This document shows, piece after piece, positions 32,558 through 50,556 of a stretch of DNA of 64,000 nt (position 1 is its first letter; each line of letters opens with the position of its first letter). The notes beneath the pieces are model-generated. The model was not told the origin of the DNA and did not search any database. It saw nothing but the letters and a program-made list of their open reading frames with translations. The DNA comes from a virus: positions 1 to 64,000 of IMG/VR virus record IMGVR_UViG_3300037826_000057. One strand, given 5' to 3'. Position numbers and translations under genes: made by a program.

Positions 32558-32558
32558 T

Positions 32559-33071: not shown

Positions 33072-33082
33072 CTTGTTTAAAA

Positions 33083-33156: not shown

Positions 33157-33187
33157 TCGTAGGATTTTAATAATTAAAGGAGGTATC

Positions 33188-33749: not shown

Positions 33750-34072
33750 TCTGGTAAAAGAATCGCGCAGTTACGCAAAACCCTCACCTCATGCAGCATG
33801 TGCTTCATGGCATGTGCATGCATGAGGTGGGAATGTTATAATAAGGTAAAGATATTTAGAGCTTGCGTAACGAACCAAAAAATTTTTACCAGCTCTCCCA
33901 AGCCTGGTAGACTACCTTCTTTTATATAACGCGCATGCGCGCGCATGTGCATGTACAGTATAAGGTAGATTAACTACGGGGTAGGTTAATTAGAAGGTAA
34001 CTTAATCTTGGTTAATACCGAATTTCATTTAGTCACAATCAATCAACCAAGACTTTTAGCTGGTTTTTTAAA

Positions 34073-34106
34073 CCCCCTTGACACGGTAAGTCTAGTGTGT
34101 TATAGT
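34073..34106 (+). promoter_or_regulatory. Class B promoter
   Basis: CCCCC-TTGACA-CGGTAA, 17-nt spacer, TATAGT. Confidence 0.85.
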
Positions 34107-34173
34107 AAAAGCGTCGAACAAGGCAGGCCGAGAGGCTAAAAAATTATTTACCAGACCTAAAGGAGGTCACAGA

Positions 34174-34566
34174 ATGAACGTTAAACTAGTTATGAACCAA
34201 GATTCAATTAAAAGCAGCGCGGTAAAGGTAAAAACGCAGACGGTCTTCATCAATGGAGAAGAGAACGAGTTCGCGTCTTTCGTAGATACCGCGTACATCC
34301 CTCATGGGGTGTACGAGGAATTAGAGAAAGACCCTGAGGAATCAGTGGTTTTGACCTTTACCGACGAAGAGCCAGAAGACAACCTTCTTTACCAGGAGAT
34401 GGTCGAAGAGAGGGAAACCAAGAACACCCGAGTTTTGAACCACAACACCATCTATTTAGATGGTGAGGCTCTCTCAAGTCTGGCGGTTGGTATTAGAGGT
34501 ATCTATGTGCAAAAAGACTCTTTCGACAAGGCATTTGATGGTGACCTCTGGTTAGCCATTTCCTAG
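34174..34566 (+). CDS. Acidic protein with internal duplication
   Basis: Halves align (TVFING...TAYIP and TIYLDG...GIYVQ); followed by hairpin 34572-34630. Confidence 0.75.
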   Translation: MNVKLVMNQDSIKSSAVKVKTQTVFINGEENEFASFVDTAYIPHGVYEELEKDPEESVVLTFTDEEPEDNLLYQEMVEERETKNTRVLNHNTIYLDGEALSSLAVGIRGIYVQKDSFDKAFDGDLWLAIS

Positions 34567-34654
34567 TAGTTTAAACCCAAACCCTGGGCACAACCGGGTA
34601 AGTTGTGCCTGGGAGTTTGGGTTTAAGCTTTTAAGTATGATATGAGGAGGTAAA

Positions 34655-35095
34655 ATGGCTAGAGAACGCGGTAAGGACAACATATTCACAGAGAAAGACC
34701 TGTGTCTGGTGATTCATCGGGCGGAACGCACCGCCTACGTAGTAGGTGGGCGCGGTCAGGCAGAGAAGGTAGTAGACATGCTCGGTAAAGATGAATGTTT
34801 GAAATTCACCTGGAGAGGTGATGAACAATACTTTAAGCCACTGTTATACCGCTCCAGCCGGCGCTTATCTGCGGGTATAAGTTCGGATAACAAAATGGTT
34901 GATTCTGTGGTGATTATGTTCAACGAATCTAAATTTGACATCCGGTTTGTGAAACCGGGTGTACAAGGGGTAGAAAAGAGAATACCTACGACTGGTAAGG
35001 AGGAAGCCTTTCGCGACTTACCAACAGGTGTTTCAGTGAAGGAGTATCTTAAGAAACGATATAACGGTCAGGTAGACGCTTGGCCGGTAGAGTAG
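34655..35095 (+). CDS. Hypothetical early protein
   Basis: SD GAGGAGGT. Confidence 0.75.
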   Translation: MARERGKDNIFTEKDLCLVIHRAERTAYVVGGRGQAEKVVDMLGKDECLKFTWRGDEQYFKPLLYRSSRRLSAGISSDNKMVDSVVIMFNESKFDIRFVKPGVQGVEKRIPTTGKEEAFRDLPTGVSVKEYLKKRYNGQVDAWPVE

Positions 35096-35104
35096 GGAGG
35101 TAGA

Positions 35105-35485
35105 ATGAACCAGGGAAAGAAGTTACGTAAAGCTTTTAAAGTATTGTATCAAGGTAACTGGATTAGAGGTTTGGATGACGGCGAGGACGTCCGGGTCTCG
35201 GTAATGACAATCATTCAAACTTCTTATTTAAGGTCTAACGCGACCCGGAACAAGAAGACCATCGCGGAGGATGTCGCTAACCTGTTATCATTTAGTTGTC
35301 GCGGTCTCTCTTTAGTGGGGGAGATAGAAGTGGAAAGTGATCTTACCCAACGCGAGAAAGGTGTTGGGTATACGGGGAAGACCTACTATGTACGGTTGCG
35401 TACCCGGGGTATGCGCAACTGGGACTTCGGTCGAGTTTTTGCGGTGAGGACACGTTCTAACCTTACGCAGATGACCTGGCTATAG
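35105..35485 (+). CDS. Hypothetical early protein
   Basis: SD GGAGGT. Confidence 0.75.
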   Translation: MNQGKKLRKAFKVLYQGNWIRGLDDGEDVRVSVMTIIQTSYLRSNATRNKKTIAEDVANLLSFSCRGLSLVGEIEVESDLTQREKGVGYTGKTYYVRLRTRGMRNWDFGRVFAVRTRSNLTQMTWL

Positions 35486-35523
35486 TCTGGGGTAAGTTTC
35501 TCTCTTAACCAAAGGAGGTAGAA

Positions 35524-35976
35524 ATGAACGAGCAAAAATATCTGAGTGACGAAACAATTGACCGTTTGCGTAACCTGCATAATGTCAACCGTCTTGAGGT
35601 TCAAGACTGGGGAGATATTTCCCTAGTCTTGGGGTATGAAATTAAGTCTGACCAGGCTTATGTCGTTAAGATTGATGAAATTGAAGGTGTGTTCGTTTTG
35701 CTGCCTAAAACCTTCTTAGAGGAGTTCAGCCGCAATGATGAAATTGAAGTTTGCGGGTATTACCTCTGGGAGCGGTGGGGTAGTAAACGGTTTATGCTTG
35801 GGCCTAAAGAGCATATGGGTTCAATTAATAAAATAGCACGGTGTCATTCTTGGACAGTCGAACTTGACAAGCACCGTGTTCGCCACAGTACCCGTGATAT
35901 ATCTGAAATCAAGTGCGAAGTTGATACCGCACGTGAGTATGAACGTCGCATTACCGTAAGAATCGAAAAGATTTAA
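35524..35976 (+). CDS. Hypothetical early protein
   Basis: SD AAGGAGGT. Confidence 0.75.
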   Translation: MNEQKYLSDETIDRLRNLHNVNRLEVQDWGDISLVLGYEIKSDQAYVVKIDEIEGVFVLLPKTFLEEFSRNDEIEVCGYYLWERWGSKRFMLGPKEHMGSINKIARCHSWTVELDKHRVRHSTRDISEIKCEVDTAREYERRITVRIEKI

Positions 35977-36034
35977 TATTCTGACTTTAATATTCTAACC
36001 CCACTCTTAATCGAGTGGGGTTAAGGAGGTAGAA

Positions 36035-36415
36035 ATGAATGAGGTAGAACGAGCCAAGAACAAATTTCTCAAGAGGGTAAACAAATACACCGCGGGAATT
36101 TTCGAGTTTGAGAGTTCGGTCCAACTGGCGAGAGCGACAAGAACCCGGTTGGATAAAACTAGGGAAATAACGCATTATGGTGTCACATTGGAGGCTGTCA
36201 AACTTGACGGTAGTACATATGCTTACCGTTGTCTGTGTGACGGTAAACGCACCGGTTGGCAGGTTGACAATGCTCGTTGGTTGCTAGACTTTTTCACCCG
36301 GTGCATTTACAGGGTGGAAGAGGAGAGAAAAACCTTCGACATGGTAGGTTTCCGGAAGGTTCCGGAATGGGAAAATATTCTTGGGATTTCTTACCAGGAT
36401 TTGATTAGCTCTTAG
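36035..36415 (+). CDS. Hypothetical early protein
   Basis: SD AAGGAGGT. Confidence 0.75.
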   Translation: MNEVERAKNKFLKRVNKYTAGIFEFESSVQLARATRTRLDKTREITHYGVTLEAVKLDGSTYAYRCLCDGKRTGWQVDNARWLLDFFTRCIYRVEEERKTFDMVGFRKVPEWENILGISYQDLISS

Positions 36416-36430
36416 CAGGGAGGTATAAGG

Positions 36431-37036
36431 ATGAAGAAGGTATGCACGAAGCAGGTCTGTTACTCAGACATTTTGGAATCCCTTTACACCAAGCCGGGTT
36501 CGCCCGGTGAGGAGGTGGGGATTTACTCAGACTTTCTACCTGGAAGTTTGGGTACTCTAATCCTCGGCGAAGAAACCGAGGAAGAGTGGCTTGACCAGCA
36601 CTTTGAAAATACCGTAGCCTGGGAATTGGAGAATGCAGGTTACACCGTGGTAGGTGAAGTTAATGGAAAACCATGGGATGAATTGTTTTACGTAAACGAC
36701 CGGATTGAGGAATCTTTACAAGGGCGCGAGGTTAGAATCAGACGGGTATATGCAAGTGATGGGTTGTATACTCGTCATATTTGGGTGTTTTTGTGGGACA
36801 GTATTGCAAATCGGTGGTTAACCTCTAGACAACTCATTCAACCGGTTGGGCCTTGCTTGGAGTTTTCCACCTCTTCAGAGGTGGAAAAGTATTACGGGTA
36901 TGAAACGGATGGTTGGTGCCCCTGCAACCATTGTCGGATGAAGGAAGACCTGGTAGAATGGACAAGTAATGTATTCTACCAAATTAGTTTTACCCACATT
37001 GAATGGAGTGAAGCAGGTGAAATTAAACCATATTAA
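36431..37036 (+). CDS. Hypothetical early protein
   Basis: SD; CPCNHC. Confidence 0.75.
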   Translation: MKKVCTKQVCYSDILESLYTKPGSPGEEVGIYSDFLPGSLGTLILGEETEEEWLDQHFENTVAWELENAGYTVVGEVNGKPWDELFYVNDRIEESLQGREVRIRRVYASDGLYTRHIWVFLWDSIANRWLTSRQLIQPVGPCLEFSTSSEVEKYYGYETDGWCPCNHCRMKEDLVEWTSNVFYQISFTHIEWSEAGEIKPY

Positions 37037-37067
37037 AAATAGTTTAAGGTGAAAATAGGAGGTAAAA

Positions 37068-37418
37068 ATGAAACCAACTTTGGAAGACGTTGCTGGGGGT
37101 ATACTAATATTCTTGATTATTGGTGTACCCTGTATTATTTTTTTAGACGCTTGGATACCAAAACACGGTACTCAGGAAGTAGCGGTTCTCAAAAAGATAG
37201 TAGTACCCAAAGACAATATTGAGTTTAAGGTTGAGGTTGGTGGTGAGTTAAAAACGGTATATTCGTGGTCTCGGTCTAGGTGTGTTTACTTTTTTGAACA
37301 TAGGGGCCGGGTGCTGCGAGTAGTCGCGCCAGACCATTATATAAGAAATAGAATTACCGTAAGCTACAAAATCTCGAAAATATGGGGTGCTTACGAGTAT
37401 AGGTTGGTAATTAAATAA
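37068..37418 (+). CDS. Membrane-anchored hypothetical protein
   Basis: N-terminal TM, SD AGGAGGT. Confidence 0.7.
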   Translation: MKPTLEDVAGGILIFLIIGVPCIIFLDAWIPKHGTQEVAVLKKIVVPKDNIEFKVEVGGELKTVYSWSRSRCVYFFEHRGRVLRVVAPDHYIRNRITVSYKISKIWGAYEYRLVIK

Positions 37419-37437
37419 ATAGAAGCAGCAGTATCAA

Positions 37438-37472
37438 TAACTCCAGGTATAAAAGCCTGGAGTTTATTTTTT
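37438..37472 (+). terminator. Intrinsic terminator
   Basis: AACTCCAGG-TATAAAAG-CCTGGAGTT then T tract. Confidence 0.8.
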
Positions 37473-37520
37473 GCCGAGTGTAAGGTATATAACCAAAGCG
37501 TTATAACCACCAGTAATAAT

Positions 37521-37616
37521 ATTTCGGTGTTAAATTGAAAGTATCTCGGTGCTAAAATCTAAAAGTTTCGGTGCTAAAATTCTAATATCTCGGTATTAAA
37601 ATTCTGGTATCCCGGC
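37521..37616. repeat. 22-bp-period iteron-like repeats (TYTCGGTRYTAAA)
   Basis: CGG cores at 37525, 37547, 37569, 37591, 37613. Confidence 0.85.
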
Positions 37617-38179
37617 CCCGAAAAGAGAGTAAAAACCACCTAAAAACCCACCTAATATAGTAATTAAGTTACCAATAACACAGGATAAGATGGTAGTAAG
37701 TAATAGTAAGTATAAAACAGTGGTGGTATAAAGTGGTGGTATAGAAAGGTATGCGGTATAGATAGGTGATTATGGTATAGATATAGAGTGGGGTTATGGT
37801 ATAAGATGGTGGTATAGGATGGGGGTGAAGCGGTCGGTATAGGATGGTGGTTATGGGGTATCAGGTCAACAACCTTACACATACATACCCACAAGTACAT
37901 ACCCACAAGTATGCACCAACACCCCACACCACCATACCAAACTACCTGGTAAGCACATCGCGCAGTTACACGCACACCGAGCCTAGATATTTACCATATT
38001 TATAGTTACTGTGGCACTGGTGGGTGCAACCTTCTTGCTAAAACCTCCTATAGAAACCAGATTCTCCTCTAGCGCAAACCAGATTCTCTGGTAACGCACC
38101 CCTGCGCTTACACGTGTATATACCGGTTGAATACCTACTCCACGTTAGGTGCTAGGTATAAATAAATAGGTGGAAGCGG

Positions 38180-38325
38180 GTTGGTACTGGGAAATTGGTA
38201 CTAAGGAGTTGGTACTGAGGAGTTGGTACTGGCCTGATAACGAAAATACGTGCGGAGACCAGTATATATCTAAACCAGTATATATGAAGACCAGTATATA
38301 TGAAGACCAGTATATATAGAGACCG
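38180..38325. repeat. Tandem arrays: TTGGTACT x4 (14-bp period) and ACCAGTATATAT x4 (16-bp period)
   Basis: Directly visible. Confidence 0.85.
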
Positions 38326-38572
38326 TAGTGAGGCCCTACCTACAGAGTAATAACCTAATACAGACATTCTAATCAGGTATATATAATTGTGCATAGATTT
38401 TAATTGTGCATAAGTTGGGATTTTATCTGAGTAATGAACCTACCTCTTTTGGGTAATGAACCTACCCCCTATCCTGGCGATAAGCCTTTTTATATACACG
38501 TGTGCGCATGTGCTAAACTGACGCATGATCCTGGCATGTGTGTTGCCTAACGCCAGTACACTCTCCAGTACA

Positions 38573-38601
38573 CTTGACAATGCGTCAGCATGTGCTATAA
38601 T
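38573..38601 (+). promoter_or_regulatory. Class C promoter
   Basis: C-TTGACA-ATGC...TGC-TATAAT, 16-nt spacer. Confidence 0.8.
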
Positions 38602-38783
38602 AACGCTATGTTAAAGAAAAGCCCACTCCGAAGCAGAAACCGGCGGTCTCTTGTCCGCCAAGTAGGAGACCGGGCCAAGATAACCGGGAGGTGATGATTA
38701 AAGATGCTACGTTGGTCGTAACACAATTTAGTATTCTAGGGTAAGTTGCGGGGGAAGTCCCCATTTAACAAGGAGAAACCAGA

Positions 38784-38972
38784 GTGAAACTCGTTAATGA
38801 AGGAAAAGAAATTTCAATTTCACAGGTAACCTTAGACTTCATCTACCACTCACTGGTAGTACAGTCCGAGGTAGAAGAAAATTCAATGTTACCCGACGAT
38901 GTTGTTCGTCAGGAAATGTTGGAGGTAGCCGATTTAATTAGGGAAGTCTTAGTTGAGGAGAAACCAAAGTGA
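38784..38972 (+). CDS. Hypothetical acidic protein
   Basis: SD AAGGAG, GTG start. Confidence 0.65.
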   Translation: MKLVNEGKEISISQVTLDFIYHSLVVQSEVEENSMLPDDVVRQEMLEVADLIREVLVEEKPK

Positions 38973-39097
38973 GGATTCACATTCGAATAGAAGAAACCCA
39001 CGCGCAGGAATTGGAAGAAAAAGATAGAAACCGAGCGAGAAGGTTACGCTCAGAAAGAAGAAAGCGTCAAGCGGTTAAGAAAGGAGAAAGTAAATAA
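38969..39097 (+). CDS. Small basic protein, 42 aa (MRIHIRIEETHAQELEEKDRNRARR...)
   Basis: GAGGAG SD, overlapping stop/start junctions; below ORF-track cutoff. Confidence 0.55.
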   Translation: MRIHIRIEETHAQELEEKDRNRARRLRSERRKRQAVKKGESK

Positions 39098-39393
39098 TGT
39101 ATTGCCAAATGTGTAACAAGACCGGTCCCGGTGTAGAAGTGAGAAAAAAGCACCGGCGTGCGCTATGCATTAAATGTGCAATGCAAACACCAAGAAAGGT
39201 AAGTAAACAGGAATTCTTGGAAGTAATGTGGGGTGAGCATCTAAGTGAGGTGCCTTCTCACATTAAACGGGAATTCTATCAGGATTATATGCTTAGCCAG
39301 AATACCCTGGTTAAGTATATCCTGTATTCCTGCTCAGATGTTCATACCGAACAACAAGCATACCGGCGGATTGTAGATAGGATTGAGGTGTAA
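39097..39393 (+). CDS. Zn-finger protein
   Basis: CQMC...CIKC, SD AAGGAG. Confidence 0.7.
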   Translation: MYCQMCNKTGPGVEVRKKHRRALCIKCAMQTPRKVSKQEFLEVMWGEHLSEVPSHIKREFYQDYMLSQNTLVKYILYSCSDVHTEQQAYRRIVDRIEV

Positions 39394-39427
39394 CCGTAAA
39401 AATTTTTCGCGGTTACACGTAGGAATT

Positions 39428-39468
39428 AGAGGGTAAGTAGTTAATTCTACTTGCCCTTTTTTATTTTG
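39428..39468 (+). terminator. Intrinsic terminator
   Basis: AGGGTAAGTAG-TTAATT-CTACTTGCCCT then T tract. Confidence 0.8.
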
Positions 39469-39504
39469 CCGACCGGAAAAGCCTAATAACGAACCTAGTA
39501 CTTA

Positions 39505-39660
39505 CTCTGGTATAATCCTGCTTTAGTATAATCCTGCTCTGGTGTAACTCTTCTTGGTATAACTCTTCTTGATATAATCTTACTCTGGTGTAATTCTTCT
39601 CGGTATAACTCTTTTTGGTATAATAATACTGTTAGTATAATAATATTACTAGTATAATAA
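39505..39660. repeat. About 10 degenerate 15-16 bp tandem repeats (CTYTGGTATAAYYYT)
   Basis: Directly visible. Confidence 0.85.
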
Positions 39661-39743
39661 TGCTATTAACATAATAATGAACCTTACATGCGCGTGCGCG
39701 TGTGCTTGTAATATAGGATGGACAATCGACTATTTGACGCCAG

Positions 39744-39772
39744 CTTGACAATGCCACAGAACATGCTATAAT
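39744..39772 (+). promoter_or_regulatory. Class C promoter
   Basis: C-TTGACA-ATGC...TGC-TATAAT, 16-nt spacer. Confidence 0.8.
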
Positions 39773-39823
39773 AGGCTTGCGTTAAGGAAAGATTTAGTAA
39801 GAAGAATTAACCAGGAGGTTAGC

Positions 39824-40033
39824 ATGATTCGGTCAGATGTTCATACAACCGGTAGCATAGAGCACAACGAAATCATTCTCACGCGCGGTATGGATTGTTA
39901 TGCCGCACTCACAACCTCCCGGGAATATAACCGGGAGATGCAAATGTACCATCGGCATTTCATTCTTCTGGTTGAGGGATATGACGACGACATTCCTCAA
40001 CCAGATTGGAATGCTGATTACCAGGGGGTATAA
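39824..40033 (+). CDS. Hypothetical early protein
   Basis: SD AGGAGGT. Confidence 0.7.
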   Translation: MIRSDVHTTGSIEHNEIILTRGMDCYAALTTSREYNREMQMYHRHFILLVEGYDDDIPQPDWNADYQGV

Positions 40034-40034
40034 G

Positions 40035-40256
40035 ATGCAGGTCAAGATTGAGATAAACGGATACGGGCCTCTGGTCAATGATCTGGCCGAGGTATTAAAG
40101 CGGGACTTACAAAAGTCCATAGAAACGTATTATACGGTCAGGAAAGAATTCGATGAATACCTCGCGCAAGAATGCGCAGAGGTTAGTATTGAAAGCACGG
40201 TAAGACTGAATGACGGTCTTACTGGTGCTCAGGCAAATATCGAGATAGTTGAGTAG
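40035..40256 (+). CDS. Hypothetical early protein (start MQVKIE)
   Basis: SD-like GGGGGT before ATG 40035. Confidence 0.65.
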   Translation: MQVKIEINGYGPLVNDLAEVLKRDLQKSIETYYTVRKEFDEYLAQECAEVSIESTVRLNDGLTGAQANIEIVE

Positions 40257-40265
40257 GGAGGTATA

Positions 40266-40535
40266 ATGTACAAGTTGTTCAAGCTTACACAGGAAAAGAT
40301 TTTCCAGGTTGAAGACCGCAAGGTTAAGATGTATATAAGTAAGAACCGTGAGACGGTTAAGGTAACGTTAACGGATATGCAAGGCCGGGTACTTGCTACC
40401 CGGCACTTCTCCAGGGGTTGGCGACCTCGGCATTGGAACCTGACCACCTGTAAGGGCGGTTGGGATGCTGAGTTGAGTTATACCGTGGGGCGTGGAGCAG
40501 GGATCCACCGGTCAAGTATGTTTTTAGATTTGTAG
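40266..40535 (+). CDS. Hypothetical early protein
   Basis: SD GGAGGT. Confidence 0.7.
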   Translation: MYKLFKLTQEKIFQVEDRKVKMYISKNRETVKVTLTDMQGRVLATRHFSRGWRPRHWNLTTCKGGWDAELSYTVGRGAGIHRSSMFLDL

Positions 40536-40552
40536 GTAGGAGGTAAAAAATC

Positions 40553-40582
40553 GAGAGGGTGAAATTCCCTCTCTTTTATTTT
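40553..40582 (+). terminator. Intrinsic terminator
   Basis: GAGAGGG-TGAAATT-CCCTCTC then TTTTATTTT. Confidence 0.8.
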
Positions 40583-40635
40583 ACCCCTGCTAGTGAATAT
40601 ATAACGAACCTAGCACCAAATACCCTCTCCAAAAT

Positions 40636-40683
40636 ATTCTATGGTAAGAGGTTCTATGGTAAGAGGTTCTGTGGTAAAAGTTC
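40636..40683. repeat. 15-bp tandem repeat x3 (TTCTATGGTAAGAGG)
   Basis: Directly visible. Confidence 0.85.
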
Positions 40684-41444
40684 CCCGCGCTTACATATTA
40701 CAACCTCTCTGGTAATTAGCTTCTCCAGCAGCTAGCTTTTCTGGTAAATACTTCCCCGCGTTACACGTAACCCATATTCTGGTTAGTAGTTAAACTTACA
40801 ATTTATTTTTCAATCTTGTGACAATTTCTTAAAATTTCAGAAATAGCGGTAAAAGTCAGAAATAGCGGTAAAGGCTTTGCGCGGTTACACTCAGGCTTGA
40901 GCTGGTAACGCACCGCCTGGTTAACACATTGCCGCAAGAAATCTTGCTACAACAGAATCCGCTTGCAATATTAATTGTAGCAAAAAAATATAACAAAGTA
41001 TCATTATAATGCAATAACAAAAAGACACCACAAAGTATAACTATATTGTAACATTAATTACAGTAAAGAAATTTTGTAAAATATAATTGTATTACAATAT
41101 GGTGTGTAGTACAATTAAATATACATTACTGATATATTATACGATAAAATATGTATGAAAGTAAGTATGTAATGAACCAGAAAATTGCCAAAAGAATTGT
41201 ATCAAATAAACACCGCAAAACACAATTATACTGTAATTAATATTACAGTAAAGAAATATAACAAAGTATCATTATACTGTAATCTGGTTTGTAGTACAAT
41301 TAAATATATATCTTCTGATATACTATGCGATTAAATATGTATACAATTAAATATTATATAATCAGATATATAATACAATTAAATATGTATGCAATTAAAT
41401 ATATATAACGAACCGGGGAATTGCCAAGGGAATTGCAATCATAA

Positions 41445-41486
41445 GATACACTGGCAATTGATACACTGGCAATTGATACACTGGCA
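41445..41486. repeat. 15-bp tandem repeat x3 (GATACACTGGCAATT)
   Basis: Directly visible. Confidence 0.9.
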
Positions 41487-41726
41487 TGTATATATAAGGA
41501 GGGATACAATTATAGGGGGATTGTAAGATAAACTTGTAAAAGCTTTTAGAATGCATGAAATGTTATGCACTTGCAAAAAAGCATTGCATTGCTAAGCATA
41601 AAATAGCTTGAAATCGCCTGAAATCGCCTTAAAAGTGTAGCTTTTGCAAAATATCATTGCAAAAGTTAGCAATTTTAGGGAATTTGGGAATATCCGACGG
41701 TTTTAACATTACTGCGTATTTTACGC

Positions 41727-41773
41727 TTGCGATATTCTACTATCCCGCTATAATTGTAAGCGTTCTTTAATAA
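41727..41773 (+). promoter_or_regulatory. Promoter followed by a boxA-like antiterminator site
   Basis: TTGCGA-16-TATAAT(41749); CGTTCTTTAATAA at 41761 resembles rrn boxA. Confidence 0.65.
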
Positions 41774-41780
41774 TTAAATA

Positions 41781-41944
41781 GCTTTGGACTTATTCAACGC
41801 GCGGGCGTATGTGGCGCTAGCACTTTTACGAAACGGGTTCCGTAGCCCGACGCACAAGCTCATAGTTGCGCACAATGAGCGAGCGAGAGCAGCTTCAACG
41901 ATTTACGACGGCTCCACATGTGACGCGCGGATTGTCCAGGCGCG
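41781..41944 (+). ncRNA. Candidate structured RNA, about 160 nt
   Basis: Long closing stem (TTTGGAC/GTCCAGG, CGCGCG/CGCGCG, GTATGTGG/CCACATGT) around two hairpins; many G-U pairs. Confidence 0.55.
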
Positions 41945-41976
41945 TTTGTTTGGATTTTCTAGCTTATGGGAGTAGA

Positions 41977-42123
41977 ATGATGAAATGCCGTAACTGTGGC
42001 AAAACATACTCGAAACATGAACGTGATGAAATGCTGGCGTATATGTTTGTCGGCGCGCCGGATGAGGATTACATAGTCCTTATTGAGGGATTGTGTATAG
42101 ACTGTTGGCCGGAATACTATTAA
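41977..42123 (+). CDS. Small Zn-finger protein (48 aa)
   Basis: CRNC...CIDC, SD GGGAG. Confidence 0.7.
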   Translation: MMKCRNCGKTYSKHERDEMLAYMFVGAPDEDYIVLIEGLCIDCWPEYY

Positions 42124-42133
42124 GGGGGATAAG

Positions 42134-42331
42134 ATGAAAAAGATTAAACGTATCTTAATTGTGATAGTGTTGGCTTTGCCCTTAATCCTCTCCGCCGTAG
42201 CTTGCGATGACGAGGACGGCGACGGGGATGTAAGTATCGGACGGGAAGCATGCGTAGCGGCATGCTCCCTCCAGTACGAACGCGGCAGCGAAAGCTGGCA
42301 TAGTTGCACTTCATTATGCCCAGCTGATTAA
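42134..42331 (+). CDS. Small Cys-rich lipoprotein
   Basis: Basic N-terminus, hydrophobic core, lipobox AVA-C. Confidence 0.75.
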   Translation: MKKIKRILIVIVLALPLILSAVACDDEDGDGDVSIGREACVAACSLQYERGSESWHSCTSLCPAD

Positions 42332-42372
42332 TCTTAACGATAGATCAAATAAGAATAGTAAAGGAAAAGACA

Positions 42373-43236
42373 ATGACAATCCAGATGGAAAAGCTCGAGA
42401 GTCTGTTAGCTAAAGAACACATTAACGCTCTGGATGTAATCGGAGCGTTAGACTACTGCCTCAATGCCAAGGCAGTAGAATTTGAAATACTCAATAACTC
42501 CAGAAAAGCCTGGGGCAAGCCGATAAGAAGCACGCCGACAAGGCTTGCCCAAAAAGGCACGCTATACAGCAAGGACGGGGAAGTAGTGCAAGCTTCCCCA
42601 AGCAGCACTAAAGGCGCAACTAGCACTTTTAAGAGTGCAAGGAAAGATAACGGAAAAGAGTATGCGGCTATCCTCTTGGATTCACTATTGCCAAATGAAA
42701 GCAGCAAGTTAGCTGCTATGTTGGCAATAGTCGATGATGTAGACTTCACAAAAGTCCTTGGAAAAGAAGCGGGGCAAGCAGCTGAAAAGCTGGCAAAGGC
42801 AACAGTAGAATTGTTCTTTTGTCAAGTGGAAGTAAACAACGAACGCTTGCCCAGCAAAGTATCACGAAAATCCCAAGCTATGGGCGATTCCGACGCCCAA
42901 GCTGAAGCCGACGAGAGCTCGCTCACTCCGGCGCAACGCGCCGCCAATCGTATAGCGCGATTGAAGGGCAACGAGCTGCCCTATAGCGAGAGCGAACAAG
43001 CCGACGAACAAGCCGACGAACAAGCTGGCGAACAAGCCGATTTCAATGCCGATGAACTCGACGAACTCACTGACGTGAAGTATATCGGAACGTCAACGGC
43101 AGAAAAGCTGTTATCGCACGGCTGGACGCTGGATCAAATTAACGTCCAGTATAAGCTGCATGGCGAGCTTCCGCCGGAAGTACAAGAAATTGTATCCGCT
43201 AAGGCGGCAGACAATCTTAAAAAAGAAATTGAATAG
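42373..43236 (+). CDS. Unknown protein with acidic EQAD linker and C-terminal helix-hairpin-helix domain
   Basis: LTDVKYIGTSTAEKLLSHG is an HhH motif. Confidence 0.75.
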   Translation: MTIQMEKLESLLAKEHINALDVIGALDYCLNAKAVEFEILNNSRKAWGKPIRSTPTRLAQKGTLYSKDGEVVQASPSSTKGATSTFKSARKDNGKEYAAILLDSLLPNESSKLAAMLAIVDDVDFTKVLGKEAGQAAEKLAKATVELFFCQVEVNNERLPSKVSRKSQAMGDSDAQAEADESSLTPAQRAANRIARLKGNELPYSESEQADEQADEQAGEQADFNADELDELTDVKYIGTSTAEKLLSHGWTLDQINVQYKLHGELPPEVQEIVSAKAADNLKKEIE

Positions 43237-43239
43237 CAT

Positions 43240-43278
43240 AAAATATGGGCAAGTGTAAAAGCTTGCCCATATTTTTTT
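43240..43278 (+). terminator. Intrinsic terminator
   Basis: AAAATATGGGCAAG-TGTAAAAG-CTTGCCCATATTTT. Confidence 0.85.
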
Positions 43279-43397
43279 GTGGCAATAAACTAAATAAGCA
43301 TTATAATAATCTAATATATAATAAGATAGATTATTATAATAAGATAGATAGATACAACGGATATATTATAAAATACTAACATATTATAAAATATCTA

Positions 43398-43507
43398 GGT
43401 ATTTTTTAATGCGTGCATATTTTTTAATACTGCGGTATTTTTTAATATGAGGGTATTTTATAATACTGTGATATTTTTTAATACTGCGGTATTTTTTAAT
43501 ATCACGG
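43398..43507. repeat. Six 18-19 bp tandem repeats (GGTATTTTTTAATACTGC)
   Basis: Directly visible. Confidence 0.85.
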
Positions 43508-43639
43508 TCTATTTTATTTTGTAGATAAACTTGCAATCCCCCCTATTGACCGTAAAAAAAGCCTACCGTGCTGTGGCGCCGGCCCCATGTGAACCCCTTA
43601 CACGCCACAACCAAAAATCCCAAAGTTCATGCCAATCCC

Positions 43640-43725
43640 AAAGTTGGTAACCGCAGAGTGGGTAGGATCATAAAGTTGGTAGGATCACAAAGTAGGTAAC
43701 CGTAAAATTGGTAACTATATTGGTG
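43640..43725. repeat. Degenerate 15-17 bp repeats (AAAGTTGGTAR)
   Basis: Directly visible. Confidence 0.75.
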
Positions 43726-43765
43726 TATATTATATATCAGTGTATATTATATTGGTATTTGTATA

Positions 43766-44044
43766 TTAATACCTTTTATAACTTATTCTTATCTCTAGTT
43801 CTGTGCTGTTATCTAGGGCTGTGTTTACTTCTTCTATTTTATCTAGTATTTCTTGCAGCATTTTATCACGGGTTTTTCTACTTTGGTTTATTTTTTCTTC
43901 GGTCTCTCTTATTGTTCTGCGTGCGCTGCTAGCTCTTCTGGTGTCTGCTTTCAATAGTTCCTCCCAGCTTATATTTTCCTTACCTAATTTTTCCTCATTT
44001 AATCCCGCCTTACTTGATTTTGCCCTATCGCACATCGGACACAC
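43766..44044 (-). CDS. Hypothetical coiled-coil protein
   Basis: SD AAGGAG. Confidence 0.6.
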   Translation of the reverse strand: MCPMCDRAKSSKAGLNEEKLGKENISWEELLKADTRRASSARRTIRETEEKINQSRKTRDKMLQEILDKIEEVNTALDNSTELEIRISYKRY

Positions 44045-44051
44045 CTCCTTA

Positions 44052-44363
44052 TTAGGTACCTACTTCCTTGTAGGTACCTAATTGTTCCAGTATTTTGTTT
44101 AATACTGAATTTAATTCTTGGCTGAGTTTTAGGTATTTTTTGGTTTGTTCGTTCTCGTGCTCGGCCAGCTCTCTTAGTAGTTCTACTTCTCTATCCCTTG
44201 CCTGAATTATTACATCTCTGACGGATTTAGATAGTTCTTGTTTGCATTTTAGAACCTTTCTATACTCACGCCAGAGGTATATTACAGCCCATCCCAAACC
44301 AATAACCATAATACCCAAAGGCCCGTATCCAAGCAATATACTCTCTAATGTTAATTCTTGCAA
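44052..44363 (-). CDS. Holin-like membrane protein
   Basis: Single TM (YGPLGIMVIGLGWAVIYLW) plus coiled coil, at the end of the tail module. Confidence 0.6.
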   Translation of the reverse strand: MQELTLESILLGYGPLGIMVIGLGWAVIYLWREYRKVLKCKQELSKSVRDVIIQARDREVELLRELAEHENEQTKKYLKLSQELNSVLNKILEQLGTYKEVGT

Positions 44364-44409
44364 ACTTATAACCTCCTGGACTTATAAATTTTTTTTCAAT
44401 TATAAAAAA

Positions 44410-44545
44410 TTTACACTTAGAGATTTTTACACTTATAGATTTTTACACTTATAAGTTTTTAGATTTACAATCTAGCAAATTTGTTATTTTGTAAATTTAT
44501 AATCTTGTAAATTTATAATCTTGTAAATTTATAACCTGTTAAATT
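44410..44545. repeat. 16-bp tandem arrays (TTTACACTTAKAGATT x3; TTGTAAATTTATAATC x3)
   Basis: Directly visible. Confidence 0.8.
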
Positions 44546-44907
44546 TATGCCTTAACTTCTATAATCTTATCTAATAGCTGCCAGTCCTGAATACTAAATT
44601 CACCAGAAATATTCTCTAAATCTATTTCCGGGGGTGTAAAGTCTATATCTACTTCCTGTGCTAAAAGCTCTGAAAATTCTTGAGCAAACTTTCTAGCTTC
44701 TACACTATCAGCTTTAATACTTATACCCTTAGTAGTTTTTGTAGCGTATTTTTTAATTAGTTTTTCACGCTCTTTTTCTATAATTTCAATTTCATCAAAA
44801 ATAACCTGAAGTTCTTTATTTAATTTATAACTTTGTACTGCGCTCATATTTGCCTGTACTAACTTACCTAATGCTTGCCTTGCATTCCAAATGTCTAATA
44901 ATTGCAT
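44545..44907 (-). CDS. DUF1617-like protein after tail fibre
   Basis: SYKL.K.......E.....KLIKKYA pattern. Confidence 0.6.
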   Translation of the reverse strand: MQLLDIWNARQALGKLVQANMSAVQSYKLNKELQVIFDEIEIIEKEREKLIKKYATKTTKGISIKADSVEARKFAQEFSELLAQEVDIDFTPPEIDLENISGEFSIQDWQLLDKIIEVKA

Positions 44908-44950
44908 TTTATTATCCTCCTTTGTTAAATTCTACCTTACTAATTTACTG

Positions 44951-47479
44951 TTACTGCCACATTACCCACACATTAACATATACTGTGTCTGTGCCACTCG
45001 TTTGGTCAATTGTAAGTTTGCCTGTGGAGTAAAGCGTTAAGTTAACCTGATTAGTTCCATCATTAAATATAGAAGATGTATCAGAACCAGAGCTTGGAGT
45101 GTCCAGAGCTAGCTCAGCGTTACTAGTGTTGCTCGATCTGTCGGTAGCAACAAAAAATGCATTAAGTCCATATTGCACATCATTACTCCCATCAGGAATA
45201 ATAGTAGTTTCCCCGCCTCCACTGACACTGCCTTCCCAGTAAAGGAACCCGCCGAAATCTTTGTAACCGTGCATAAGCCCTAATGGGTCAGTAGGCCCGA
45301 TGCCGATGTTACCATCGTGATTAATAGTCAAATATTCAGTAGGCCCACCACCCGTACCATTTTCTCGTGCATATAAACCAAACTTAAATCCCTCATTCCC
45401 ATTCGACCAATTCTCAGTAGCCTTAGCAACAAAGAATTTTCTAGGACTATCCCATTCCGTTCCGTCATAACCTTGTAAGGCGAAGTTTAAAATCTCATCC
45501 CCATCTTGAATGGCAGCCGGAGAGCCTAGAGTGCCCCTTGCTCTTTTTGCAATAAATCTAGGAATACTAACAAATGTATCGCCAGCGGTGGCTACTGTGA
45601 AGTCTAAAAGCCCTGAACTGCTATCTTCTCTTCTTAATGTAGCAACTTTATTATCACTTGTCACAACATCTAATTTCGCCCCCATCACCGCAATATCCCC
45701 AGCCGCATCAAACACAATTCGCTCATCGCTGGCACCAATGCCGATCCAAGCAGCATCTTGCATTTGAATATTATTTATACCGGTTATATTATCACTATCG
45801 TCTATAGAGATTCCACAATCTTGTAATGTATCAGTACCATCCCATCTAGCTATTGTATTATCTGTACCAAGCCCAGTTAAGTCCGTACCCCCGCCCCCAG
45901 CTCCAAGATCAGTCCAAGAACCGCCAGAATCTTTAAATTCTATATTTCCAGCATTATCTCTTAAACCATACCCCATAGAACCTTCAGTGGCACCCCAATT
46001 AATATAGGAATTAGTTGATAATTCTACATGATCAGTAAATATACACCGATCATCAAATGTTATATCTGGTGTATCACCACCGCCAGCACCAGGCGCAAAT
46101 CCAGCACTTATAGTACAATCAGAAATTGTAATGCCTTCTAAATCACCGCCAGCAAAAAAGTCTCCGAGAACAGCTAAATCAGTATGTGGATTTGTGGTTT
46201 TGATACCTAAACGCTTATCTGTAGTGTCCCAGTATAAGTTAGAATTATCTTCTGATAGTTCACCATCATCACTAGCAAATAATACTGAACCAGAAGTAAA
46301 TATATCTATTTCCCTATCAGTATCTACAAAGATACTACCTTCGGCTGCGTGGCTGCGCACAACCCAGCCTACGCGCATAGCAAAATTTGGGTGTGTTGGT
46401 TTTACATTTGTTAGTTCTCCAGGTGTAGTTGCACTTATGTATAACGTATCACCCGCAGACCAAGAAGAAGTATCTAGTTCTCTAACACGCCCATAGGTTG
46501 TTGCATACCCAACTGCATTATTATTAATAGTATTTTGGGTAACTACAGCAATCCCGCGCAAGGTGGATAAAGCATCTGCTTGTGCTAATTGTACTTGTGG
46601 GTTATCTCCAGTAGAACCAGAAACATATACAACATCACCATTATTTAGTGTAGAACCTTCTGCATTCTTAACCCTTATCAAGTTTTCATTTCCGATATTT
46701 AAAGTAATATCTTCATTATCATTATAGTAGGAAAGAGTATTACTCTCTGCAGAATAAAATAACCTGGCCTCTTGCCAATCCGGGTTAGGGTTTTGTGGTG
46801 TAAAATCAAGATAGTTTACAGCTCCACTAATGGTAGTACCGCCAGCACTTGTTAGACCGCCTAAAAATGGGCGTATATCTTTCTCAATGTATGCGCCCCA
46901 GTTCTCTGTATCCCAACCAATACCAGAAGCAGAAGGCGTTAATTGTAAGGTGCAAACCGGCAAACTCCCAGATGGTACAGAAGGTGCCTCTGGACTTACA
47001 GATTCAGTGCCAGTTTTAATATTTACCGTTCCACCAGATGTAAGATAAACCAGGTCTTTGCGGTTATTTGTACTGGGGGCAGAGATTGTACTGGTAATAG
47101 CACCATCAAATTCTAACCTTTCTGTATCAGAATAATGCCACACACCAGAAGCAACGTGTATAGACATATCTCTAGGTGTATTTGGGGTGGGTTCAAACCA
47201 TCTGGCAACTTTTTGCCAGTAGCGTATTCTATTTAAGTTATCAACCAGAGAAGAATGCCCTGAAGTAATAGGTGTTTGTGCTTCTGTAGTATCATAAGTC
47301 ACCAAGCGTTGATTAAGCTGGCCAATAACACCTCTCCAGGGTAACCCAGACCCACCAGCTGGGCCTTCATCGCCACCAAATACTAGCTTTCCACCCTGTA
47401 TAGCACCTAAAGTCTCTTCTCTTGTACGCGCTTCTATAAAATCTACTAATGTTTCACTAAATCTTCTAGTTTTGCTCAT
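44951..47479 (-). CDS. Tail fibre / receptor-binding protein
   Basis: G/S/T-rich, repeated RLGI.TT.P and NIGIG.T.P motifs. Confidence 0.8.
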   Translation of the reverse strand: MSKTRRFSETLVDFIEARTREETLGAIQGGKLVFGGDEGPAGGSGLPWRGVIGQLNQRLVTYDTTEAQTPITSGHSSLVDNLNRIRYWQKVARWFEPTPNTPRDMSIHVASGVWHYSDTERLEFDGAITSTISAPSTNNRKDLVYLTSGGTVNIKTGTESVSPEAPSVPSGSLPVCTLQLTPSASGIGWDTENWGAYIEKDIRPFLGGLTSAGGTTISGAVNYLDFTPQNPNPDWQEARLFYSAESNTLSYYNDNEDITLNIGNENLIRVKNAEGSTLNNGDVVYVSGSTGDNPQVQLAQADALSTLRGIAVVTQNTINNNAVGYATTYGRVRELDTSSWSAGDTLYISATTPGELTNVKPTHPNFAMRVGWVVRSHAAEGSIFVDTDREIDIFTSGSVLFASDDGELSEDNSNLYWDTTDKRLGIKTTNPHTDLAVLGDFFAGGDLEGITISDCTISAGFAPGAGGGDTPDITFDDRCIFTDHVELSTNSYINWGATEGSMGYGLRDNAGNIEFKDSGGSWTDLGAGGGGTDLTGLGTDNTIARWDGTDTLQDCGISIDDSDNITGINNIQMQDAAWIGIGASDERIVFDAAGDIAVMGAKLDVVTSDNKVATLRREDSSSGLLDFTVATAGDTFVSIPRFIAKRARGTLGSPAAIQDGDEILNFALQGYDGTEWDSPRKFFVAKATENWSNGNEGFKFGLYARENGTGGGPTEYLTINHDGNIGIGPTDPLGLMHGYKDFGGFLYWEGSVSGGGETTIIPDGSNDVQYGLNAFFVATDRSSNTSNAELALDTPSSGSDTSSIFNDGTNQVNLTLYSTGKLTIDQTSGTDTVYVNVWVMWQ

Positions 47480-47494
47480 AAATCATACCTCTAG

Positions 47495-49174
47495 TTAAGT
47501 TGTTTCACTTTCCACATAATCTGCACCTTCTATTTCCGTAATTTGAACATCGCTTGGTATACCATCACACCTATGTTCATAATTTTGTAGGTCATCTGTA
47601 AATTGAATCGCGCAAGACTGCCCTGTATTAGCACCAATAAATGTACCCGCCTCATTTAATGATGCTCCCATTGCACGATATATACACTTACTAGGCCAAG
47701 GTGTAGTTGATTCCCTTGTTATAGAATCTGCACTACCTGGTGCTGTGTAGAATGCACCTTGCCCACCATTAACAGTTACAAACTGTGTACCACTTCCAGA
47801 AGCTAAAAGTGGTGGAGTTTTTAAATCCGTAATGACAGAACCAGATGGTAAATTGGGTAAAACTGTTTGTGCATTTGGCCACCCACTATATAATACACAT
47901 TGTTTATAAGGCCCCAAAGTACCATATAAATAGACTTTACCTTGCATCTCCGCGTGAGGGTAAATATACCCAGAACCAGGAGCAACAAACCCTATACCAG
48001 AAGCTAGTGTATTTGCTTCTACTTCTAACATTATAGGTGATGTAGCTGGATATACACTACCTGTGACATATAGCTGAGTTCCAGCTCTGTCTAACCCCCT
48101 TGGTTTCACAGGAAAATCTAAATCTGGATTGCGTTTCCAAACACTAAGCCAATCTGTCCCGTCATTATCTGAATAACTTACTATCACAAATGTACCGTGA
48201 AATGTTATACACCCTGCTTTATCATTAATAGTATTAATATCATCACGCGATATGGTACCATCCATATCTGTATCACGGTAAACATTTACACTAGTACCGT
48301 CTTCATCGACAATAAACCTTTTACCATCAAAATCTACTCCAAAAGGTGCTTGGGCAATACGTGGTTTATCTACAAATGTACTTACACCGTAAGGTGTATA
48401 ATCCGCTTCTTCAAATTGATTCTTTGTATAAGCTAAATCTCCATTTGAATCCCGCGTCCAAAATTTATGGTCACAACCCCAGGCCGGTGCTAAAAAACTA
48501 CCATAAGGTGCCGTATCTTTTATTTCCCAATTTGAAAGCCCAAATCTAATATAGTCATCTTCGTTTATACTAAATTCATATCGTGAAAAACTAGCTAATT
48601 GACTTTCAGAGAATGGTCTCACACTACAAACGTAACCAAATTTTGGTATAAATTCCTGACGCCATGAGTTTCCACCATCAAAGGAAACCCATACGCCATA
48701 GTAGTCCTCATAACTTAACGTTTGATACAAAACACCATTATATGAATTTAAATCTCTAATTTTCCATTCATCTGGGTGACTGTCTGAGACTTCATTATGC
48801 GAATCAAATAATAGAGTTGGTTGTCCATCTTCCTCTCTTATTCTATAAATTTGAGCAGCTACATAAGTTGTTCTATCATAACCATCAATCTCTTCCCATT
48901 GTACGTTGACTGCCGTCAAAATATGTGCATTACAAAAGGTCATTTGACTATATGGTCTAACAGTCACAAATTCTTCATCAAAATCATCATAATGATCTGT
49001 GGTATATTCCTGTACTCTAATTTCTGTTAGGTTTTTACTAAACATATTAAATTTATAAAAATATTGTATGCCAGAATGAATATAAATACTACCAGTACTA
49101 TCATCTGGAGCAATCCGAATTCTATCTAACAGCACCGGGGCTTCAAAACGCGTTATTTCTGTATAAGTAGCCAT
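47495..49174 (-). CDS. Tail tip protein, beta-propeller-like
   Basis: Asp-box SFDGGNSW; position in tail module. Confidence 0.65.
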   Translation of the reverse strand: MATYTEITRFEAPVLLDRIRIAPDDSTGSIYIHSGIQYFYKFNMFSKNLTEIRVQEYTTDHYDDFDEEFVTVRPYSQMTFCNAHILTAVNVQWEEIDGYDRTTYVAAQIYRIREEDGQPTLLFDSHNEVSDSHPDEWKIRDLNSYNGVLYQTLSYEDYYGVWVSFDGGNSWRQEFIPKFGYVCSVRPFSESQLASFSRYEFSINEDDYIRFGLSNWEIKDTAPYGSFLAPAWGCDHKFWTRDSNGDLAYTKNQFEEADYTPYGVSTFVDKPRIAQAPFGVDFDGKRFIVDEDGTSVNVYRDTDMDGTISRDDINTINDKAGCITFHGTFVIVSYSDNDGTDWLSVWKRNPDLDFPVKPRGLDRAGTQLYVTGSVYPATSPIMLEVEANTLASGIGFVAPGSGYIYPHAEMQGKVYLYGTLGPYKQCVLYSGWPNAQTVLPNLPSGSVITDLKTPPLLASGSGTQFVTVNGGQGAFYTAPGSADSITRESTTPWPSKCIYRAMGASLNEAGTFIGANTGQSCAIQFTDDLQNYEHRCDGIPSDVQITEIEGADYVESETT

Positions 49175-50529: not shown

Positions 50530-50556
50530 TATTTAACTCGTATTCCTTAACTTGCG

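Follow-up and report, generated by a model that had tools for sequence, protein, structure and literature searches.

The operon and its borders

The window analysed is a stretch of 64,000 nucleotides, positions 1 to 64,000 of the 77,053-bp IMG/VR record IMGVR_UViG_3300037826_000057 (here G000), an uncultured tidal-flat phage. Within it lies a small operon of three plus-strand genes, none of which has a known Pfam, PHROG or PADLOC family. The first (41977-42123) encodes a 48-aa protein with a CxxC...CxxC zinc-ribbon pattern, the second (42134-42331) a 65-aa protein that looks like a cysteine-rich lipoprotein, with a signal peptide followed by AVAC, and the third (42373-43236) a 287-aa protein with an acidic EQAD repeat and a C-terminal (HhH)2-like domain. 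That domain was all that Foldseek and the Atlas showed for the third protein, whose AlphaFold model had a pLDDT of only 54, and only about 7 homologues were found in very large protein sets. The unit has a sigma-70-type promoter, TTGCGA-16-TATAAT, at 41727-41754, and an intrinsic terminator at 43240-43282 with a 14-bp perfect stem followed by a T run. A second promoter-like element, GTGGCA-17-TATAAT (43279-43307, plus strand), follows the terminator and reads into the adjacent arrays; the same element is present at 2891-2919 in the relative L008.

To the left, 31544-40735 (plus strand) is an early-type region of small genes that is very dense in GGT/ACC (4-6.3 sites per 100 nt, up to 80 per kb), with many promoter-like sites, terminators and short tandem arrays that have a (T)GGT(A) core. 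The last ACC on this side lies in TAACGAACC at 41406-41414, which is the last of nine copies, all on the plus strand, of the intergenic motif TAAYGAACC; its full form in L008 is GGTAATGAACC, which is GGT-N5-ACC. The upstream zone at 41415-41838 (plus strand) has only two sites, at 41699 and 41836, and holds GGGAATTGC repeats, three copies of GATACACTGGCAATT (41445-41489) and the G-run element GGGGGATTGTAAGATAAACTTG (41515-41537). Related GGGGAAT(AT)TGC repeats lie upstream of the corresponding unit in another relative, G004. The right border, 43398-43756, holds six 18-bp units of GGTATTTTTTAATAnnnn, the element TTGTAGATAAACTTGCAATCCCCCC (43518-43542) and further GGT-core repeats, so that sites occur about every 18 bp in AT-rich non-coding DNA. 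This stretch is variable or replaced in other strains, as seen in a joint from 43306 to 43555.

Absence of GGT and ACC from the unit

A sequence-only reading had described a 2-kb island that avoids GGT/ACC beside DNA enriched in it, and this observation is confirmed. There is no GGT or ACC on either strand in 41839-43397 (1559 bp), a gap of 1562 bp between the sites at 41836 and 43398, whereas 40260-40560 holds 21 sites. The Shine-Dalgarno sequences of the island are GGGAG, AAGGGGG and AAGGA, while GGAGGT stands before 26 of 103 called genes, including 17 of 34 in region B (22-41 kb), and before none in the island. The local 15-bp repeat reads CTGGCA where neighboring arrays read TGGTA. Every checkable statement of that reading held, although three points require correction. 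The first gene starts at 41977, giving 48 aa; the leader RNA, which matched no Rfam family, folds no better than shuffled sequence (z +0.6), so an RNA stem around the site at 41836 is not supported; and the proposed location near a probable genome end is not shown.

The whole record holds 2424 sites, one per 32 bp, and the Poisson expectation of a gap this long is 1.1e-18, the next most extreme trinucleotide being CCG/CGG at 1.7e-5. A dinucleotide-Markov model built from the island itself expects 26 sites. Synonymous-codon shuffling, named beforehand as a way to refute the depletion, expects 16.9±3.1 sites in the 287-aa gene, with a minimum of 10 in 200 shuffles, against 0 observed, and this gene is the most depleted of 103. 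As negative controls, 26 unrelated viral contigs, recovered with a 21-nt terminator pattern, have longest gaps of 135-323 bp. No other 4-mer is purged in the unit and there is no general avoidance of palindromes. None of these phages carries a tRNA-Gly or tRNA-Thr.

The site-free zone matches one transcription unit, from the promoter at 41727-41754 to the terminator at 43240-43275, and in three genomes it equals promoter to terminator plus 100-350 bp on each side. The counterpart promoters are TTGACA-17-TATACT in L008 and TTGACA-17-TATTAT in G004. That host RNA polymerase reads the unit is inferred from these promoter sequences alone; there was no RNA run among the sequencing runs that carry it. 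Avoidance is symmetric on the two strands and covers coding frames, codon junctions, Shine-Dalgarno sequences and non-coding DNA, so the target is duplex DNA, not RNA or codon usage.

Conservation in relatives and enrichment elsewhere

The same word is avoided at the same genome position in relatives. L008 has 2 sites in 1350 bp and G004 has 0 in 1533 bp (E 1.7e-18), with unrelated genes in the unit, while G009 has 7 (4 per kb) and G001 has 13 (7 per kb), each in about 1.4 kb. The genes in the unit vary between relatives, but small membrane or lipoprotein genes resembling gene 2 lie in or beside the troughs of G004, G009 and G001. The graded troughs sit beside the densest DNA of each genome, at 53-80 sites per kb, whereas eight other relatives (G003, G005-G008, G010, G011 and G013) show no trough, and relatives without one peak at 41-55 per kb. 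Homologous 287-aa genes at 30% identity are both depleted. As a weak protein-level proxy, we counted dipeptides that force a GGT (MV, WV, WF, WY, WC, WW) and found 0 across 8 homologues against 3.6 expected, although the homologues are not independent.

Strain variants of the island also keep it site-free. The 39 listed strain differences create no site, where about 3.7 were expected (P about 0.02), and two that would have created one are paired with a neighboring change. Regulatory repeats inside the zone carry substitutes for the word, as with CTGGCA in G000, and G004 has AGTTGGAACTAACTG inside the zone and GGTCGGAACTAACC outside it. A joint from 41015 to 43454 in two runs may represent a form without the island, or with a replaced island, but with sides of only 20-22 nt it is too weak to use.

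Outside the island, GGT/ACC is the most over-represented trinucleotide, at 1.42 times the base-composition expectation. Under synonymous permutation, it is the most enriched out-of-frame trinucleotide in region B (455 against 291 expected, z +14.5, rank 1 of 32) and in region C, the late-gene module at 44.5-77 kb (521 against 381, z +11.3), but not in region A, the replication module at 0.4-21.7 kb. Part of this enrichment is a general property of phage genomes, as the observed/expected ratio is 1.34 for the whole genome against 1.05-1.17 in unrelated contigs. The flanks are also enriched in GGT-N5-ACC, with lineage-specific 11-mers (GGTAGCATACC, GGTATCTAACC and GGTAATGAACC), and the arrays, with a 13-18 bp period, share only a GGT core.

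Further searches gave no useful relative. There was no near match in cultured phages, the closest PolA identity was at most 32%, and TerL gave no informative relative. Viral-contig searches with the island protein, the tail protein, P0002 (a further homologue of the 287-aa protein) and a conserved border element found nothing useful, and a genome-contig scan found no relative of the 287-aa protein. A RecA scan gave only about 40% identity to assorted MAGs.

What may read the word

The interpretation offered by the sequence-only reading, that the island is first-entering or first-expressed DNA that must be invisible to a GGT/ACC-directed process, is partly supported. Invisibility to something that acts on GGT/ACC in duplex DNA is supported, as is a single transcription unit with a host-type promoter. 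First entry near a genome end is not shown: the contig ends of G000 lie inside genes, and G001 and G004 assemble as closed circles, with overlaps of 114 and 172 nt, that break at non-homologous places. Of the three options it raised, a nuclease combined with T5-like entry is weakened, while a base modification and a GGT-binding coat or silencer both remain possible, the latter best fitting a mechanism that depends on site density.

We tentatively propose a model where GGT/ACC is the core word read on double-stranded DNA by a factor belonging to this phage group, most likely a cooperative DNA-binding protein or a DNA-marking activity whose effect grows with the local density of the word. In this view the early small-gene region is saturated (50-80 sites per kb, plus GGT-core arrays and operator-like GGT-N5-ACC motifs), the late genes are moderately enriched, the replication module is neutral, and one short unit transcribed by host RNA polymerase, between the early region and the end of the late module, is kept free of the word. 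That unit would never be bound or marked, and the host polymerase could read it at once and go on reading it whatever happens to the rest of the genome. Its variable genes, including small membrane or lipoprotein genes, are as expected for takeover or exclusion functions needed first or continuously. What the analysis establishes is the avoidance itself, its match to the transcription unit, its conservation at the same position with different genes inside, ongoing purifying selection and DNA-level enrichment elsewhere; that the reader is phage-encoded, that it acts by density and that exemption means uninterrupted expression are our inferences. The graded troughs fit a quantitative, density-dependent effect, but no reader or writer has been identified, and a 3-bp word gives a single protein almost no binding affinity. 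It is therefore unclear why every isolated site was purged in G000 and G004, unless the factor acts enzymatically or polymerizes along DNA. Neighboring site-rich units also have good sigma-70-type promoters, so the word does not by itself stop host transcription.

Gene presence or absence across relatives gave no clean candidate for the reader. Only a 121-aa ORF (9978-10343) is limited to G000, G001 and G004, and the three N6/N4 methyltransferases of the phage do not track with the trough. An amidoligase / GATase / ATP-grasp / COOH-NH2-ligase operon with a RuvB-like ATPase does track with it, being present in 4 of 4 trough genomes (G000, G001, G004 and G009) and 0 of the 8 without, but the sample is small and phylogenetically linked, and phiEco32, tested as an outgroup, has the operon and no trinucleotide desert. 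An alignment search with the amidoligase found only the three relatives already known. It is tempting to speculate, though the possibility is doubtful, that a clade of phages uses the density of a three-letter word as a code that sorts its genome into domains, with a phage-encoded binder or marking enzyme, possibly linked to this operon, occupying or marking word-rich DNA while one word-free operon stays permanently open to the host polymerase. This would be an undescribed principle of phage gene control or self-marking.

Other explanations appear less likely. A covalent mark placed by a phage enzyme at GGT/ACC on all phage DNA as protection, and bulky enough to slow or stop unmodified host polymerase, would require the immediate-early unit to be mark-free until its products, or later DNA copies, allow the rest to be transcribed. 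Sensitivity to single sites suggests an enzyme acting at each 3-bp site, one of the three methyltransferases resembles the short-motif enzyme M1.HpyAVI (E 7e-47), the amidoligase operon tracks with the trough, and genome-wide enrichment would raise the density of the mark. We nevertheless consider this doubtful, as no enzyme with GGT/ACC specificity has been identified, the GGT strand offers no A or C for an ordinary methyltransferase, site-rich neighbors carry consensus sigma-70 promoters, and no natural phage base modification is known to block host RNA polymerase. No DpdA/TGT with QueCDE, Mom or hydroxymethylase-kinase pathway appeared among the roughly 70 ORFs scanned with Pfam or PHROGs, a set that left out many small ORFs, and the thymidylate-synthase homologue keeps Cys and Asn like ordinary enzymes; the substrates of the methyltransferases and the amidoligase operon remain undefined. 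A T5/T7-like leading segment, which would have to survive a host nuclease or the phage's own host-shredding nuclease until its products neutralize it or the rest of the genome enters, is somewhat less likely still. The short unit with its strong host-type promoter, variable genes of unknown function and bordering arrays is consistent with it, and in one run, X1, k-mer depth falls from about 97 to about 51 at about 43,470, although a tandem-repeat branch or strains with different tail genes could explain this step. However, the partial troughs of G001 and G009 would give no protection against cutting, enrichment of the word in the rest of the genome argues against a host nuclease and is not the depletion expected of restriction-site avoidance, and conservation of one word across relatives with 43-57% portal identity fits fast-changing host defenses poorly.

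Two further possibilities are remote. In the first, GGT or ACC would be the trinucleotide start site of the phage's DnaG-type primase, and the unit would be kept free of priming on both strands. Primases are the one class of phage enzyme defined by recognition of a trinucleotide, the phage encodes a Toprim primase and a DnaB-type helicase, and symmetry would follow if both strands must stay unprimed, but there is no evident benefit large enough to purge every site, the primase is conserved in relatives without a trough, and priming does not explain the match to promoter and terminator, the GGT-N5-ACC motifs or the very dense flanks. Foreign ancestry, in which the absence was inherited from a host or element itself lacking the word, is very unlikely. 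Island composition does differ from the genome average (GC 45-49%, CpG observed/expected 1.21 against 0.70) and gene content differs between relatives, yet the adjacent early genes have the same high GC3 with the highest site density in the genome, the free zone includes phage-type regulatory repeats, the promoter and the terminator, both homologous 287-aa genes are depleted, strain variants conserve the absence, and no bacterial homologue of the 287-aa gene was found.

Avoidance of a 3-bp word to this degree, with none of the 26 to 90 expected copies present, is far stronger than any restriction-site avoidance described so far, and its conservation with different genes inside reveals an unknown activity that reads DNA. 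If the reader belongs to the phage, it points to a new way of timing or shielding phage genes or to a new sequence-specific DNA mark; if it is a nuclease, it would be a frequent cutter of a new kind. It would also bear on how first-entering T5 DNA is spared while host DNA is destroyed. The signature is easy to search for and marks operons of unknown function as candidate immediate-early, takeover or exclusion genes in uncultured phages.

The closest precedent is the first-step-transfer terminal repeat of T5/BF23, a short block expressed early by host polymerase, with genes of unknown function and a long non-coding repeat region at its border; these phages resist restriction provided the sites, which occur freely in the rest of the genome, are absent from it (PMC10644984; Davison and Brunel 1979, as cited there). 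G000 formally shares such an absence, although no nuclease is known for GGT/ACC. Here the word is only 3 bp, so about 50-90 sites are missing rather than a few, the word is enriched elsewhere and forms local motifs, avoidance is graded among relatives, and no terminal position, long terminal repeat, two-step entry or A1/A2/dmp homologues could be shown. Autographiviridae likewise escape a Type I system when the leading region lacks the motif, so that motif position and not copy number decides the outcome, and their variable early region carries anti-defense-like genes (PMC12455610). That motif is long, bipartite and belongs to a strain-specific host enzyme, whereas a single trinucleotide conserved across divergent relatives points to an agent tied to the phage group. 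Viral enzymes can read 2-3 nt words genome-wide, as do chlorella-virus nickase/methylase pairs (CCD, RAG), T4 endonuclease IV (TCA on single strands) and preQ0 insertion at GA/GGC in phage CAjan, but none reads GGT/ACC, none is known to be paired with a word-free expression unit, and no homologue was identified here. With regard to mobility, no recombinase was found and GC3 matches the adjacent early genes, while a 19-nt direct repeat lies at 41521 and 43518.

Absence of GGT/ACC from a single transcription unit

In the 77,053-bp IMG/VR virus record studied here (G000), recovered from a tidal-flat metagenome and covered by the window at bases 1-64000, GGT and ACC together occur 2424 times, or one per 32 bp, yet none lies between 41836 and 43398. 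Under a Poisson model about 1e-18 gaps of that length are expected, and the most extreme value among the other 31 strand-symmetric trinucleotides is 1.7e-5. A dinucleotide-Markov model trained on the island itself, and therefore biased by the depletion, still expects 26 sites. Synonymous-codon shuffling of the 287-aa gene of the island gave 16.9±3.1 sites and never fewer than 10, making it the most depleted of 103 called genes, and the longest gaps in 26 unrelated viral contigs were only 135-323 bp. What the sequence-only reading had observed thus held up. Its accompanying statements held as well, namely 21 sites in 40260-40560, two exceptions at 41699 and 41836, the TAACGAACC border, Shine-Dalgarno sequences without GGAGGT, and CTGGCA in place of TGGTA.

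The free zone coincides with one plus-strand transcription unit, as predicted from sequence. A sigma-70-type promoter, TTGCGA-16-TATAAT, lies at 41727-41754 and is followed by a 215-nt leader that is no more stable than shuffled sequence (z +0.6) and has no Rfam match. Three genes follow, at 41977-42123 (48 aa, with a zinc-ribbon pattern), 42134-42331 (65 aa, lipoprotein-like) and 42373-43236 (287 aa), and the unit closes with a perfect hairpin terminator at 43240-43275. None of the three proteins has a Pfam, PHROG or PADLOC family. The 287-aa protein has only about seven homologues in sets of 1.8 and 5.8 billion proteins, and its predicted structure is poor (pLDDT 54), showing only a C-terminal (HhH)2-like domain. 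Directly after the terminator, at 43279-43307, sits a promoter-like element that reads into the GGT arrays and antisense to the late module. It is conserved at 2891-2919 of L008, a metagenome fragment with a related unit, and could be an origin, a packaging site or a small RNA. G-run elements lie upstream of the unit (GGGGGATTGTAAGATAAACTTG, GGGGAAT(AT)TGC repeats) and a C-run element lies downstream (TTGTAGA...ATCCCCCC), at 41515-41540 and 43518-43542 and at 44-70 and 1277-1375 of the stretch L124. They bracket the unit in both G000 and the related record G004, partly as a 19-nt direct repeat and a 20-nt inverted repeat.

The unit lies between a plus-strand region of small genes with many promoters, terminators and short arrays (31.5-41 kb) and the end of the minus-strand structural module, which comprises tail genes, tape measure, glycosyl- and sulfotransferases, portal and an intein-bearing terminase. 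Against the genome average the island looks alien, with a GC content of 45-49% and a CpG observed/expected ratio of 1.21 against 0.70, but it is not simply foreign DNA. The adjacent early genes share its high GC3 (0.45-0.59) and carry the highest site density in the genome, 4-6.3 sites per 100 nt. At that density, about 90 sites would be expected in the island.

Conservation in relatives and the word elsewhere in the genome

L008 holds a homologue of the 287-aa protein at 30% identity in the same gene order. Its flanks carry 78 sites in 1619 bp and 17 sites in 365 bp, while the promoter-to-terminator unit (1620-2969) carries 2. Relatives found through the portal protein gave whole records. In G004 (92 kb, 44% portal identity) there are 0 sites in 1533 bp (E 1.7e-18) at the same position between the end of the late module and the early region, with a TTGACA-17-TATTAT promoter and a terminator, although its genes, encoding a 149-aa protein and a 102-aa membrane protein, are unrelated to those of G000. 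G009 (87 kb) has 7 sites in about 1450 bp next to windows of 62-70 sites per kb, and G001 (80 kb, 57% portal identity) has 13 sites in 1412 bp next to windows of 63-69 sites per kb and includes a weak homologue of the 287-aa family. No trough was found in G002, G003, G005-G008, G010, G011 and G013, three of which are at least 84% complete. For the eight of these scanned by 1-kb windows the minimum is 7-15 sites per kb and the maximum 41-55, while G002 was covered by a gap scan only.

Strain variants of the island in other tidal-flat runs differ at 5-10% of positions. The 39 listed differences create no site, and two that would create one are each accompanied by a neighbouring change that prevents it, where about 3.7 new sites were expected (P about 0.02). 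Thus, the avoided word is conserved, selection for it is current, and it attaches to the position and the transcription unit rather than to a particular gene. Strain diversity across 39000-46000 is strong in the four sequencing runs compared (X1-X4), and the 18-bp array at 43307-43554 is skipped or replaced in three of them. Two homologues of the 287-aa protein, P0002 and P0008, share with it a nearly identical C-terminal 60 aa but only about 40% identity at the N-terminus, so the gene is mosaic.

Outside the island, GGT/ACC is the most over-represented trinucleotide, at 1.42 times the base-composition expectation. We permuted synonymous codons within each gene group, which keeps in-frame usage fixed, and out-of-frame GGT/ACC then ranked first of 32 trinucleotides in the 22-41 kb region (455 against 291 expected, z +14.5) and in the late module at 44.5-77 kb (521 against 381, z +11.3), while it was neutral in the replication module at 0.4-21.7 kb. 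The whole-genome ratio is 1.34, against 1.05-1.17 in unrelated contigs, so that part of the enrichment is generic, but the 22-41 kb region and the late module exceed it. The flanks of all trough genomes are enriched in GGT-N5-ACC (N4 in G004), with lineage-specific 11-mers: GGTAGCATACC five times in G009, GGTATCTAACC three times in G001, GGTAATGAACC in L008, and (G)TAAYGAACC nine times in G000. The G000 motif TAAYGAACC is intergenic and on the plus strand, with its nine copies within 21822-41414, and its full form in L008 (323, 360 and 1367), GGTAATGAACC, is a palindrome-like GGT-N5-ACC site. It looks like the operator of a dimeric regulator that changes its spacer sequence between lineages. 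Tandem arrays of 13-18 bp period share little beyond a (T)GGT(A) core. Inside the free zones the same repeat types appear with the word replaced, as CTGGCA in G000 and, in G004, as AGTTGGAACTAACTG inside the zone where GGTCGGAACTAACC stands outside it.

Possible readers of the word

Strand symmetry, together with avoidance in non-coding and junction positions, excludes codon, tRNA and RNA-level causes, and no tRNA-Gly or tRNA-Thr is carried by these phages. Enrichment elsewhere, and the conservation of one word across relatives with 43-57% portal identity, argue against a strain-specific host nuclease or a CRISPR PAM. Graded troughs (0, 0, 2, 7 and 13 sites) argue against any agent for which one cut is fatal and instead favor an effect that scales with local density. 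As troughs co-occur with very dense flanks, operator-like GGT...ACC motifs and GGT-core arrays, the clade may use the word positively. We therefore favor, tentatively and at less than even confidence, a reader tied to the phage group, either a cooperative binder or a marking enzyme, from which this operon would be exempt so that the host polymerase can read it first and continuously. The unit's small membrane or lipoprotein genes and its variable genes of unknown function would fit takeover or exclusion functions. The avoidance, its conservation and the enrichment elsewhere are established by the sequence analysis, whereas the reader itself, its dependence on density and the expression of the unit are inferred. 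The proposal of the sequence-only reading, that the island is first-entering or first-expressed DNA that must be invisible to a GGT/ACC-directed process, was partly supported.

A variant in which the word is covalently marked appears less likely, although it gains from single-site sensitivity and from a minus-strand operon at 24939-30919 encoding an amidoligase, a class II amidotransferase, an ATP-grasp protein, a RuvB-like ATPase and a phiEco32-type COOH-NH2 ligase. Among 12 related records this operon is present only in those with a trough (4 of 4 against 0 of 8), but the sample is small and phylogenetically linked, and phiEco32 has such an operon without a trinucleotide desert. A T5-like reading, somewhat less likely still, has the best precedent (PMC10644984, PMC12455610), but we found no evidence of a terminus here and it conflicts with the partial troughs. 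The principle that an early block must lack a motif tolerated elsewhere is known from T5/BF23 and from T7-like phages. In the papers that we could find, however, a trinucleotide as the avoided word, the completeness of the purge, enrichment and motif use of the same word next door, and persistence through turnover of the unit's genes are not described.

Other features of the phage genome

Elsewhere the phage encodes PolA, RecA, DnaB, a Toprim primase, RNR, dUTPase and a thymidylate-synthase homologue, as well as three N6/N4 methyltransferases. Inteins with LAGLIDADG domains (61071-63539; 10560-13298 of the stretch L007; 14069-15871) interrupt a glycosyltransferase, the large terminase and a probable repair exonuclease, and sulfotransferase and glycosyltransferase genes sit among the head genes. 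There are three compartments of codon usage (1-21700, 22000-41000 and 44500-64000), with a GC3 of about 0.25 in the replication and late modules and 0.35-0.59 in the 22-41 kb region, where half the genes use the extended GGAGGT ribosome-binding site. The phage's tRNAs (Met, Leu-UAA and Arg-UCU) lie at 31.4-33.2 kb. Across the whole record, out-of-frame ATC/GAT and CGA/TCG are strongly under-represented in all gene groups (z -5 to -12), which suggests avoidance of GATC and TCGA, and a 1382-bp gap free of CCG/CGG lies at 12725-14107.
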